From the NCBI GenBank assembly GCA_041690695.1, contig JBEPVZ010000001.1, positions 14,943 through 78,942 on the forward strand: a DNA stretch of 64,000 nucleotides, read 5' to 3'. Position numbers and translations under genes: made by a program. Shown piece after piece: positions 54,006 through 64,000 of the stretch (positions within the stretch are counted from its first letter, which is position 1; every line of letters starts with the position of its first letter). This stretch comes from Candidatus Daviesbacteria bacterium. Its GTDB lineage: Bacteria; Patescibacteriota; Microgenomatia; Daviesbacterales; UBA10151. The notes under the pieces are model-generated. The model worked only from the letters and a program-made list of their open reading frames with translations, was not told the DNA's origin and did no database searches.

Positions 54006-54677
54006 GTGGATAAACTCAAATTAATTACTAAAACATCTCAATTTAAAATAGGTATGCTTGCAGCTTTGGCTGTGTTGTTAGTAGGTAGCTTAATAACTAA
54101 TATCTGGTTTTGGACAGAACTAAATAAAACAAAGCAAACTTTAAGCTCAAAAAGCATTCAATCGTCTCTAAATCAGCTGATGGAAGAGCATGTTGTACTA
54201 CTAGTAGAGAGTATTAAAACTACTAATAATCCAGCTGAATATCAAGCCAATACTAAACAGCTTGAGATGAATTCAACTGCCATTTCGGAATGGATTGGTC
54301 AAGTTTATGGTGAACCCGCCCAATATTCATTTCAGACTCTCTGGAGAGCCCAAATTAATGCCTATTTACAATATACCGTCGAAACTCAAGCTAAATCCAA
54401 AGACGCCGCGAAAGAGCTCCCAATTATGACCGCCTTCCCGGCGAATCTGACAAATTGGTTTGTTAAAATTAATCCCAAAACTCATCACGATAATCTCGAG
54501 CCATTACTAAGCTCATATGTCGGAATTACTAAGACGATTATTGACTCAACAGCGGTTTCTGATTTCACTAATATTTCAAGGCGCCAGCAAGATTTATCAA
54601 ATACCATGACTCAGATTGCCAATCTAATTTACCAAGATGCTTCGATCGCGTATCCCGATAAGCTAAAAACCAAATGA
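54006..54677 (+). CDS. Hypothetical membrane-anchored protein; stop overlaps the giant-gene start (ATGA)
   Basis: N-terminal TM, 223 aa; translationally coupled to the downstream giant ORF. Confidence 0.35.
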   Translation: MDKLKLITKTSQFKIGMLAALAVLLVGSLITNIWFWTELNKTKQTLSSKSIQSSLNQLMEEHVVLLVESIKTTNNPAEYQANTKQLEMNSTAISEWIGQVYGEPAQYSFQTLWRAQINAYLQYTVETQAKSKDAAKELPIMTAFPANLTNWFVKINPKTHHDNLEPLLSSYVGITKTIIDSTAVSDFTNISRRQQDLSNTMTQIANLIYQDASIAYPDKLKTK

Positions 54678-63600: not shown

Positions 63601-64000
63601 TGGTACCGCCTTAGACTTTACAACTTTGCCCAGGCCGAAAATCTCTGGGGTCCGAATTCAACAGGTTAGTAATACCGCTCAAACCGAACTACTCATCTCC
63701 TGGACAACTAATACCGAAGTGTCCTCAATCGTGACCTATTATCCCGAAGGCAACCCTGGAGCCTCAAGAGATGAAGTTAATGTCGCCCTCATTAAAGGTC
63801 CGCACCAGGTTATTATTAGAAGCTTACTCCCACAAAGCCCGTATTTACTCCAAGTTAAAGGTCGTGATAAGGCCGGCAACGAAGCCTCATCTGATATCCA
63901 AAAACTAACCACGGCGACAGACACCCGACCTCCTCAAATTTCAAGTTTAGATGTTGAAGGTTCAAATGTTCCAGCAGTCAGTTCAAACGGTCAAGAATCA
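54674..64000 (+). CDS. Giant membrane-anchored surface protein, 5' part only (more than 3100 codons in the window, no stop). N-terminal signal anchor, then four tandem ~540-aa BNR/Asp-box repeat modules, then multiple FN3-like domains
   Basis: Hand translation from ATG 54674 runs open to the window end; the other five frames give only short ORFs in the track. Each module has Asp-box motifs (STDNGATW, YSTDSGSTW, YSTDNGGTW, YSTDSGQNW), conserved Cys pairs and the YYLRARTxTAFTTTPVGFQ motif. The C-terminal part has FN3-like units (for example AYGTSSGSYG...LTGLTPGTTYYY). Confidence 0.6.
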   Translation, partial: MKKLLKKPNLNYSRRTYLAILVTVIFFSLAATIWAAISSNIGNSSTTAATQASTEKHMVRTSEGTMHSFVQVGTQTSTCGGVAKSGLLWFDSTDNGATWVCQSQLSSDTTNLMYASATVDSSDNVYVVYSVAVNGASASNDVFYQKLTKGSGATWTVGAAQTVLDASASTGYSYAVMEVEGTTRLWLAARYFDGSNYQVTVYDSNNLNDAPTWTVSQASLDTAGNGTTTHFPAMVRFGSNIGILYNAQLPTAVMRWRIRNDSDGLTSWSAENVVSANLPTTPTFSAISDSAGNVYFAQNNTTNVLFNYWNGSTWSATTVVSATAASNTFVSLSTDGTNVWIFYGDTNGLSPTLSGSRKLVYKKGILPYTATEFDTNPTNAVAYQDTFDKYWSFVSSAYTNDTVDAGDIDATNTVSSGAGNDVQMTTAIGDIAYFGKTAKFDAISWAMTTNGIGGVIAWEYWNGSSWTALSFTTSSAPNFTASGYGAFTAPADWATTAINGEGSSFFYIRARTTTAFTTTPVGFQMTSIPLINWSNFLPAPVSNTIYGQWTENASSPVKVRTGSISVTANTPNAASTANLTGVIGYSATNVATQPSNLRHMVKTSDGTIHAFIQSSTVSPCGASTSSNNGMGVNWIYSTDSGSTWACGGLLSNDTTNLMYASATVDSSDNIYVVYSSATAGANANFKIYYRKLKKGSGSTWTVGSQQTAVDATSSQGFNYATIEVEGTTRLWLAARYFDGTNYQVSVYYSNDQSAAPTWTVSQATLNTGSTASIDNIPEIVRFGSSIGVVYTASTVNITRWRYRNDGDSLTSWVQESNVSTENLDSAAFTVVSDGSNVYYASNQLTNIFFTYWNGTAWQPTNTISATAIADNLVSLSTDGTNVWIFYTDTTNLSATLTGSRKMVYKKGVAPFNVANFDATATAVNSYEDVFDKYWSFVSSAYTNDTVDAGDLDATNTASSGAGNDLQMVTGAGDIAYFSKTAKFDTVAWALTTAGVGGQIAWEYWNGSSWVSITKFLGLTAPSFSASGYISFIPPSDWATTSVNSEVTPYYYLRARTITAFTTTPVGFQVTSIPQTNWSSFLATPISNTVYGMWTENGTSPTRIKLKALSVTPETTGTSTTNLTNPGVVGYSSTTAATQVSTQHHLVRTSDGTLHAFIQASSRLACGGSSTNNNLGLNWVYSTDNGGTWNCGGQLSNDVSNLEYASATVDSSDNIYVVYSVIADGSNAAYSTFYRKLTKGSGSTWTLSGAQNALDSSSGTIAYTYSTIEAQGTTRLWLATRYFDGNNYQVATYYSSDMSATPTWTASQVPLDTASGSVSDHYPALVRFGSSIGVIYSAQFPAAQQRWRYRNDSDGLTTWSQEGVVSTENMANATFTAVGDTNGNVYYASNSTTNIFFSYWNGTVWSNPTTVSATAASVAFVGLSTDGYNVWVTYGDTNGVSASLPGSRKLVYKKGIPPYTATEFDAASTNTIASEDVFDKYWSFVSSAYTDNTTGASNVTASDTQMVTGVGDIAYFGKLAKFDTVAWALSTNGTSGIVTWEYWNGSAWVGLTDFQGFSAPSFTSAGYVTFIPPSDWATTKVNSESTAYYYLRARTTTAFGTPPVGLQMMSMPLISWGGVLAAPVSNTIYGLWNENGNAPVRVRSGSFTISATTPNTASAANLLPSVASATLYSSTTTATQPSTERHIVQTSDGTLHTFIQAGNSSPCGNSTSSTNVGNTPGLDWLYSTDSGQNWSCGGQLSNDIASLVYASATVDSADNIYVVYSMAVNGSNAAADVYYRKLTKGSGSTWTLGSSQTVLDASATQGYSYATIEAEGTNRLWLAVRYFDNVNYQVSVYYSNDLSDTPTWTASQTTLDTAGNAATSHYPALVRFGSNIGVIYNEQATSNMRWRYRADSDGVTSWNSEATVSSTNPVSPTFSAAGNTSSSNVYVAMNVGTNVIFTAWTGAAWSANATVSSLAASAAFVSVSTVGSNVEVYYGDTTGLSGTLSGSRKLVYKQGVSPYATANFDTNPTQAVSYHGTFDKYWSFVSSAYVNDTTDAADVDATNTGSSGAGNDMQMVTAAGDIAYFGKTAKFDTVAWALTTAGIGGQIVWEYWNGSSWVPINKFLGVSAPSFTASGYISFIPPSDWATTAVNSEGSSFYYLRARTITNFTTTPVGFQAASIPQINWASAVQNAANLYYIWAENANTPVRVRYSAYIYNVAPNVPSALGPSNLVDGSATNSSQPTLTFTTSDTNIGDTVQYRIQIDDSSDFASPVVDYTSALAATGATSFTVGQAAGSGSYTVGSSSQTLSDGSYYWRVQLTDLGGLSSSNTTANGGAVAFQVDTTHPTSNTTTITMLRGNGGTVVTSNGWTKQNTPYFSWDAGTDNVGGSGVKGYCLYLGTDIAGDPATSKGLLGTSPVSTTGSTCQFIISTTSIDLSTLAYQGGTWLTTSSSPYYLNIKIIDSVNNVYSGSSTQFQFRYDNVIPNNVAFINPASGNFSNVVDMSFAWPTTGASSATDTTAGVLGWQYQINSTSGTWLGTTTNTGLGVSYIPTTDNSYTLTSLQDGPSIVSGNNTIYFRTIDTAGNVSSDATIRTGVLQFGGAAPSFSGGSTVSVSPSTSTTNGFTLSWPAATATGGQNVTHYYYMINTTPPASLATLQGNSSAYIDNGTSLNVPATALTNVNKGTNTVYVVAIDDATTPNYSPSSYISGTFTLNSTSPDNVGNLIATDSSIKSISQWNVTLTWTAPAYQGAGNLTYLVYRSTDNSSFSQVGSSTGLSYVDGAPDSSLFYYKVYSKDGANSQSSGTNSVSITPTGKWTSAPDLDTGPTESNITTKNATIIWSTSRSADSKIAYGTSSGSYGAVEPSSSTQTTSHSIQLTGLTPGTTYYYVAKWTDEDGNTGSSSEKNFQTAPAPTVQDVSATNVGLDSAIINFTSVGASSVKIYYGTTVAFGAVKEISTSIASTAYTAQLIGLADGTKYYYKINTFDSDGSEYDGTALDFTTLPRPKISGVRIQQVSNTAQTELLISWTTNTEVSSIVTYYPEGNPGASRDEVNVALIKGPHQVIIRSLLPQSPYLLQVKGRDKAGNEASSDIQKLTTATDTRPPQISSLDVEGSNVPAVSSNGQES
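54833..61350 (+). repeat. Four tandem in-frame coding repeats of ~1625-1635 nt within the giant gene, diverged at nucleotide level
   Basis: Conserved H(M/L/I)V(R/K/Q)TS(E/D)GT codon blocks start at about 54842, 56468, 58103 and 59726, giving spacings of 1626, 1635 and 1623 nt. Confidence 0.6.

Follow-up and report, generated by a model that had tools for sequence, protein, structure and literature searches.

A predicted giant surface protein of a Daviesbacteria genome joins four tandem propeller modules to the conserved stalk of a large protein family of the candidate phyla radiation

The 64,000-nt stretch of Candidatus Daviesbacteria DNA analyzed here (the window, positions 14,943 to 78,942 of contig JBEPVZ010000001.1) ends inside a gene for a giant protein, of which it holds the 5' part, about 97% (54674..64000, + strand). 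Our preferred reading, which we hold to be probable though well short of certain, is that this is a Sec-exported giant surface protein, a putative multivalent and non-catalytic binder of glycans or other envelope ligands, whose C-terminal stalk would be held at the cell by way of a MacB-type transporter. The N-terminal part of the protein is made of four tandem modules, each predicted to be a beta-propeller with a nested jelly-roll. The C-terminal part belongs to a stalk family that is large, functionally uncharacterised and spread across the candidate phyla radiation (CPR); its members appear to share one layout of an N-terminal transmembrane or signal segment, an exchangeable head, and a conserved immunoglobulin-like (Ig)/FN3 stalk of about 900 residues with a terminal peptide.

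A previous sequence-only reading of this DNA had proposed a truncated gene for more than 3,100 residues at this place, and this was borne out by a retranslation that gave a single frame of 3,109 codons with no in-frame stop from 54674 to 64000. Over the same interval each of the other five frames has 95-264 stops, and the probability of 3,108 codons without a stop, as expected from base composition, is about 1e-69. The gene is missing from the mechanical list of open reading frames (ORFs) because its frame passes the window end, just as that reading had said. An in-frame TAA lies at 54659 and therefore the ATG at 54674 is the earliest possible start. This ATG shares an ATGA with the TGA of the preceding ORF 54006..54677 (CAAATGAAAA), which confirms the overlap that had been put forward as translational coupling. 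To follow the gene in other genomes, the last 400 residues of the window protein were searched against contigs from one genome per species. This gave 352 related stretches, of which the best 80 (L001-L080) were analyzed. In 79 of these 80 loci the frame stops 97-116 codons beyond the point matching nt 64000. Because these 79 uninterrupted frames end about 105 residues past the window edge, the full protein should have about 3,215 residues, and its stop is predicted some 315-330 nt past the window end. At one Shapirobacteria locus (L028:7655-10345) the frame stops 279 codons short of where the tblastn match ends, which probably reflects a disrupted gene or an assembly error.

The protein begins with a Lys/Arg-rich N-terminus followed by a transmembrane-like segment at residues 15-42 (54716..54799), the sole stretch of this kind that a Kyte-Doolittle scan finds in the 3,108 residues. 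This segment could serve as a signal anchor, or it could be a signal peptide that is cleaved, with a possible cleavage site, picked by eye, between IWA and AIS. The composition is rich in Thr and Ser, and the gene is predicted to encode a Sec-exported, disulfide-containing protein of the cell surface. G+C rises to 0.42-0.49 at 54001-64000 from about 0.35-0.41 in the rest of the window. The excess falls mainly at codon position 2 (0.54) and comes from the Thr, Ser, Ala and Gly content, while G+C at the third position is 0.39-0.43 in the giant gene and 0.27-0.36 in neighboring genes. We considered a foreign origin as the main cause of the raised G+C and rejected it, given this codon position 2 effect and a third position that is higher by a modest amount. 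The relatives most similar to the gene appear to come from Woesebacteria-type genomes.

The four tandem units of about 540 residues that had been recognized by eye stood up to alignment. At the protein level, where we delimited them, they have 541-549 residues, and among themselves they are 59-64% identical in amino acids and 60-65% in nucleotides. Module 1 (542 residues) lies at 54800..56425, module 2 (545 residues) at 56426..58060, module 3 (541 residues) at 58061..59683 and module 4 (549 residues) at 59684..61330, all on the + strand. Each unit carries once the motifs HxVxTS[DE]GT, the canonical Asp box STDxGxxW, RLWLA and FDKYWSFVSSAY. A pattern search of the translation puts the Asp boxes at 54947..54970 (STDNGATW, in module 1), 56582-56605, 58214-58237 and 59849-59872. 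Two Cys residues in each unit stand one on each side of the Asp box, and all four units also carry a motif of the YY[LI]RART type, in which F/Y variants occur. The order of motifs that had been described earlier was thus mostly right, including the paired cysteines, except for a second SGxTW box, which is degenerate. Even with a relaxed pattern each unit has one canonical Asp box and the other blade motifs are degenerate.

It could be asked if such a repeat, or the long frame itself, is the product of assembly duplication, a chimera or a pseudogene, since tandem repeats are a known source of error in metagenomes and the gene is cut by the window. We give this next to no credence. The longest identical run between any units is 35 nt, so that at 60-65% nucleotide identity an assembler could neither have collapsed nor duplicated them, the frame is intact across 9.3 kb, and two independent assemblies hold these four units in an unchanged order. 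On the unit divergence, the intact frame and these two orthologues, an assembly artefact was ruled out. The orthologues are L001, from a Woesebacteria genome bin (3,224 residues), and P0084/L081 (3,194 residues, 62% identity over 3,106 residues), both with the four-module layout. Tandem Repeats Finder found no repeats here, with a period limit of 500 and units that are about 62% identical.

The orthologues also bear on the age of the repeat. Modules 1, 3 and 4 have as their clearly best match the L001 unit that occupies the corresponding position (56%, 57% and 57% identity), and for unit 2 the same-position unit is best by a narrow margin (48%; 517 vs 503 bits). Because the units best match their same-position counterparts, the four-fold duplication is older than the split between the lineages of the window organism and the orthologue. 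The sequence-only reading had suggested size variation driven by recombination between diverged repeats and had pointed to copy number among related genomes as the place to see it. Both orthologues have four units as does the window gene, which together with the positional matching and the short identical runs contradicts that suggestion.

The same reading had taken the modules to be BNR propellers of a sialidase-like kind. Neither the whole protein nor a single module gave a BNR or sialidase match with Pfam and NCBIfam, even at E<=1, and Pfam, NCBIfam and PHROG returned no family for the module or for the jelly-roll. Folding one unit of about 540 residues, as had been suggested, was more productive: an AlphaFold2 model of unit 2, made from 14 aligned sequences, is all-beta (pLDDT 79, pTM 0.84) and points to the modules being beta-propellers. 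Foldseek with this model lists sialidases at E values of about 1e-7, and in superpositions the model reaches template-modeling scores of 0.56-0.59 on GH145 and PLL vs 0.44-0.46 on Salmonella sialidase. A profile of the propeller part, searched against 1.84 billion representative proteins, found 1,236 proteins, 73 of them at E<=1e-30. Pfam BNR_2 was called in 28 of 35 distant profile matches that consist of multiple short matches and in 12 of 30 that are one full-length match, and BNR_4 and BNR are also among the Pfam calls on such distant matches (E<=1e-15). A direct profile search of PDB sequences was weak, at E of about 0.05 to chains of Neu1 and GH33. There is no RIP in the 3,108 residues and hence the FRIP motif (x-R-I-P) is absent from the window protein. 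Numerous Arg, Asp, His and Trp residues do not vary between modules or homologues, for example R145, R151, R197, R217, R219, D221 and D223 of module 2.

Because the profile reaches BNR_2, BNR_4 and BNR, the FRIP motif is absent and the fit to GH145 and PLL is better, we regard the propeller as a likely divergent member of the BNR/sialidase clan, joined to it by a transitive link, and not as a GH33 sialidase. The BNR propeller proposal therefore survives in its fold and in the reach of the profile, with no direct Pfam match behind it, and the sialidase-like identity falls with the missing FRIP motif and the lack of a match to a sialidase model. Each propeller shows six blade-like sequence repeats. 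A seventh blade, closed by the WTEN..P.R[IV][KR] strands after the jelly-roll, is suggested by the secondary structure and by those structures that match best, and the modeled module probably fits the seven-bladed propellers of GH145, PL42 and the PLL lectins best. In the modeled unit the propeller spans about 56426-57457, the jelly-roll about 57458-57925 and the closing strands about 57926-58006. With the GH33/BNR sialidase clan (PF13088 BNR_2, PF02012 BNR) the module shares an all-beta propeller with an Asp box (S-x-D-x-G-x-x-W) placed in the hairpin of a blade, but each window module has one Asp box instead of several, and six-bladed sialidases appear to fit it worse. Identity to the seven-bladed structures of GH145 (5mum, 5mvh, 4irt), PL42 (7esk) and the lectins PLL (5c9o) and BP39L (6gxr) is 8-13%, and unlike the window protein none of these has a nested jelly-roll or is repeated four times in tandem on a stalk of FN3 domains.

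The module had been read as a single fold, which was too simple. About 150 residues of each unit (roughly 345-500) form a separate jelly-roll domain, for which the model has a pLDDT of 89.5. Its relatives in sequence are small hypothetical proteins and inserts in one tail sheath of a phage and in one major tail protein, and it resembles the galactose-binding-like decoration domains of phage and contractile-injection tails. The proteins compared were orf18 of phage LME-1 (9efk_M) and Baseplate_J-type proteins of extracellular contractile injection systems (PVC, AlgoCIS, Anabaena and Streptomyces). In contrast to those, the window jelly-roll is nested in a cellular propeller module, and there are no further genes for tail, sheath or baseplate proteins. 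Two homologues appear to show that propeller and jelly-roll are separable. P0009 (516 residues) has the jelly-roll between blades 3 and 4, and P0008 (789 residues) has a repeat region of about 270 residues (Pfam PF24807) inserted after blade 3. The same propeller/jelly-roll module is found in other giant Patescibacteria proteins, namely P0085 (2,736 residues), P0086 (2,355 residues) and P0087 (2,574 residues), where its partners are an N-terminal Peptidase_M23 or LamG/DUF2341. Two domain types absent from Pfam are defined here, a divergent BNR-clan propeller and a jelly-roll also present in phage and contractile-injection tails.

The array of FN3 domains with a purple-acid-phosphatase N-type domain that had been noticed behind the modules is present in the Pfam results (bit scores from the tail scanned alone). 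An Ig-like domain of the Rha78A N-terminal type links modules and core at 61337..61603 (PF25788, E 5.2e-07, 30.3 bits vs a cut-off of 27.4), and further on come Pur_ac_phosph_N at residues 2815-2892 (63116-63349; 37.7 bits vs a cut-off of 30) and fn3 at residues 2997-3074 (63662-63895; 36.2 bits vs a cut-off of 25). This part is more than the accessory array that had been suggested. It is the conserved core of a large family, and in the window it runs from 61628 to 64000. The idea of membrane-anchored modules on a stalk holds for the single N-terminal transmembrane segment and does not simply hold for the arrangement, since the chain order is anchor, modules, FN3. The core is 69% identical to L001 over 881 residues and 70% identical to L002 over 790 residues. 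The best 80 of the 352 loci are 54-74% identical over the last 400 residues and span Woese-, Davies-, Roizman-, Nomura-, Pace-, Collier-, Shapiro-, Moran- and Saccharibacteria, WS6 and WWE3. Many contigs with the gene (L007, L008, L012, L014, L018, L021, L026 and others) are titled in third-party assemblies as uncultured Gammaproteobacteria, Pseudomonadales or Bdellovibrionales bacterium, and these labels are probably placeholders or wrong.

Conservation of the stalk climbs toward its C-terminus, where the majority fraction goes from 0.45-0.6 to 0.7-0.85, and the relatives close with a conserved peptide that is not hydrophobic (..ALNLVITNLQEAFGFLGG). From these relatives, the last FN3 domain and the terminal peptide of the window gene are predicted to lie past nt 64000. 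The C-terminus of the orthologue (..NLQQAFGFLGSINQ) has no hydrophobic stretch and so is not of the LPXTG or C-terminal-sorting type, and other members end similarly. N-terminal to the stalk, the members carry heads unrelated to one another, which include FGE-sulfatase/C-type-lectin-like, LamG-like, Kelch and DUF2341 domains. A common form of about 1,540 residues has an FGE-sulfatase/C-type-lectin-like domain and a domain like a carbohydrate-binding module (CBM). In the members that carry them, LamG-like regions are duplicated and Kelch heads are propellers. Some genomes hold more than one member with different heads, as in MAG160 and W9_Combined_metabat2_155 with two loci each.

On the same strand as the giant gene and 3' of it, an ATP-binding cassette (ABC) ATPase is found in 72 of the 80 loci and an FtsX/MacB_PCD permease in 70, and these genes usually begin 0-30 nt past the giant-gene stop and often overlap it. 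ATPase and permease are sometimes fused into one protein of about 950 residues (for example in L003, L004, L008 and L031). Both four-module orthologues have the transporter, which in L001 lies at L001:10301-12702. The ATPase is FtsE/LolD/DevA/MacB-like and the permease MacB/LolCE-like, with all scores far under the NCBIfam equivalog cut-offs. Clusters of histidine kinase and response regulator genes are found downstream in about 13-16 of the 80 loci, which suggests regulated expression or signaling at the giant-gene loci. ABC systems of the MacB superfamily (type VII) pass ATP-driven movement to extracytoplasmic partners, and FtsEX and LolCDE engage such partners. With FtsEX and its partners EnvC, PcsB or RipC, and with LolCDE, MacAB and DevCA, the linked transporter has in common its MacB_PCD and FtsX domains and an ATPase like FtsE, LolD or DevA. 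It differs from them in that neither a membrane-fusion protein nor an EnvC-like coiled coil or a lipoprotein partner turned up. We know of no precedent for a giant FN3 protein as the partner of a MacB-type transporter.

Sister loci that carry diversity-generating retroelements (DGRs) bear on what the heads do. A reverse transcriptase (RT) gene lies directly upstream of the giant gene in 25 of the 80 loci, with a bAvd protein in 23. In about 20 of the 25 a template repeat (TR) of 116-125 nt beside the RT gene matches a variable repeat (VR) at residues of about 350-420 of the head. The mismatches between the two are nearly all at template adenines (14 of 15 in L005, 10 of 10 in L002 and 19 of 19 in L065). 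Because they fall almost only there, the FGE-sulfatase/C-type-lectin-like heads of the sister genes are genuine DGR targets. The element in L005 occupies L005:5028-8092, with Avd at 5028-5366, TR at 5400-5518, RT at 5712-6812 and VR at 7974-8092. Further loci of this kind are L002, L008-L010, L016, L017, L020, L021, L031, L032, L034, L040, L046, L061, L065 and L067. In having Avd, TR and RT upstream and an FGE-sulfatase-like head, the sister genes are like known DGR targets (Mtd, TvpA and the CPR 'B3' arrangement), and they match the cassette order avd-TR-RT-target described for CPR retroelements (PMC5758913). Unlike the C-terminal VR of known targets, theirs is internal (residues of about 350-420 of about 1,540). 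The targets of CPR retroelements have been reported usually to have no recognisable domains (PMC8144416), and these loci show that they include a large membrane-associated protein family. The window itself is different. A tblastn search of the 64 kb found no homologue of a DGR-type reverse transcriptase (TR/VR pairs were not searched there), and Pfam finds no C-type-lectin domain in the window head. The variability of this head is one of domain replacement and not of a DGR.

From these observations a mechanism can be proposed. The four propeller/jelly-roll modules would jointly bind surface glycans or other envelope ligands of a host or partner cell, and we place ligand binding in the head because the DGR variable region of the sister genes falls there. 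The strongly conserved C-terminal end would be the cell-held part, docking on its cognate MacB-type transporter at the extracytoplasmic domain. The transporter could anchor the giant protein or do ATP-driven mechanical work on it. The N-terminal segment would act as a further anchor point, unless it is a signal that gets cleaved off. The role as an adhesin or glycan binder that had been suggested from the window alone fits this family context of exchangeable and DGR-diversified heads. Looking at the possible problems with this reading, several points weigh against it. The transporter linkage is read from relatives, as the window ends before the downstream genes, and the contact between stalk and transporter is proposed from gene adjacency and co-conservation. 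In L081 the giant gene and the transporter are separated, at L081:15599-18140, by a histidine kinase of the CHASE4-PAS type and a response regulator with a single domain. The propeller model comes from 14 sequences, with a blade number that is suggested by secondary structure and structural matches. The binding role of the modules is proposed from the family context, and the nearest solved propellers include enzymes (GH145, PL42, PL25 and CylK). Finally, the sole anchor is N-terminal. If it stays uncleaved, the variable head would be membrane-proximal and the conserved stalk distal, which is a poor fit for a distal head.

These points leave some room for other explanations. One is that the protein is catalytic, a surface-tethered poly-enzyme of the glycoside hydrolase or polysaccharide lyase kind (like sialidases, GH145 or PL42) that degrades host envelope polysaccharide, with the jelly-rolls as CBMs and the FN3 domains as a spacer. 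The invariant Arg, Asp, His and Trp residues would fit an enzyme, a propeller with a CBM32-like jelly-roll is a common enzyme layout, and the module is also paired with an M23 peptidoglycan peptidase. We nevertheless find this unlikely, given the absence of the FRIP motif and of any sialidase or glycosidase match in Pfam or NCBIfam, the binding domains that sister proteins carry at the head position (DGR-diversified C-type-lectin-like, LamG and Kelch), and the oddity of four tandem catalytic domains of one type. It is quite improbable, in our view, that the protein is instead an S-layer-like or wall-spanning scaffold, in which the FN3 core builds or holds a CPR surface layer, the transporter exports an associated lipid or polymer, and the heads vary under phage or immune pressure. 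This would account for a core that is unusually conserved across CPR classes (54-74%), the strict gene linkage to a MacB-type exporter and the Thr/Ser-rich all-beta composition, and phage-receptor surface proteins are known as DGR targets (PMC8144416). However, S-layer proteins are normally poorly conserved, lectin-type heads diversified by a retroelement are not usual for S-layers, and two members with different heads in one genome (MAG160, W9_Combined_metabat2_155) fit a receptor repertoire better.

Upstream of the giant gene, the ORF 54006..54677 (+ strand) encodes a 223-residue protein with one N-terminal transmembrane segment and no Pfam match. Homologues neighbor the giant gene in both four-module orthologues, one at L001:31-630 on the same strand and abutting it (36% identity, E 9e-36) and the other at L081:5200-5895 on the divergent strand (24% identity, E 1e-11). 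Further upstream lie a 470-residue protein with an N-terminal hydrophobic segment and no family match (50044-51456, + strand) and a 351-residue protein with a sub-threshold DIT1_PvcA match only (51444-52499, - strand), neither of which is conserved near the giant gene in relatives. Four tRNA genes lie at 52507-52828 and 53786-53858 (- strand), and the mechanical ORFs 52793..53260 and 53313..53843 overlap tRNA genes. Of these two, the 155-residue ORF, with CxxC and CANCHRQRTH motifs, is HNH endonuclease-like and has no Pfam or NCBIfam match.

The place of this family among known surface proteins deserves comment. Like the giant adhesins SiiE, LapA and Embp and the FN3/ConA proteins of Patescibacteria, the window protein is very large, repetitive and beta-rich and has a proposed role in attachment. 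It differs from SiiE, LapA and Embp in that its signal is N-terminal and of the Sec type, in place of type I secretion, and in that Pfam finds no Big or RTX repeats. The stalk-family relatives differ from other giant adhesins in having neither LPXTG nor a C-terminal transmembrane segment, and the conserved stalk together with the ABC cassette sets them apart as a distinct family. CPR proteins of more than 1,500 residues with FN3 or ConA domains have already been flagged as candidates for host interaction (PMC13059738). Work on host attachment in cultivated Saccharibacteria has dealt with type IV pili, with a secretion system and with a small number of adhesins, and adhesins are essential for epibiotic growth (PMC10633639). 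We considered a link to SEML1_0890, an essential 'FN3' envelope protein of Southlakia epibionticum, and rejected it, as that protein has 195 residues and different neighbors and the tables of that paper hold no protein of the Pur_ac_phosph_N type. Our search of the literature, which was not exhaustive, turned up no account of the stalk family, none of its linkage to an ABC transporter and none of the propeller/jelly-roll module, and an earlier account is possible (e.g. Paul et al. 2017). On CPR retroelement targets with FN3 domains it found only general statements.

The organism lies within Patescibacteria, in agreement with the reduced-genome bacterium that had been supposed from the sequence. 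In this group large FN3 proteins have so far been flagged as candidates for host recognition and attachment. The architecture at the level of the family is more interesting than the window protein itself, a giant modular surface adhesin. It describes a phylum-wide family with split roles, in which a swappable or hypermutated head is joined to an unusually conserved stalk and a constant MacB-type partner, with a kinase and response regulator at some loci, and it yields testable hypotheses on attachment and possibly on nutrient extraction. The boldest of these, which we put forward as a distinctly unlikely idea that is still worth stating, is that stalk and transporter form a surface machine specific to Patescibacteria. 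The head would capture a host ligand, and the ATPase cycle would be relayed through the C-terminal FN3 domains and the terminal peptide so as to pull on the adhesin, let it go or shift its position, or else to draw lipid or lipoprotein from the host in the manner of LolCDE. In the latter case host envelope material would be obtained for a bacterium that is unable to make its own. On either reading the four-propeller protein would be a multivalent head variant of that machine.

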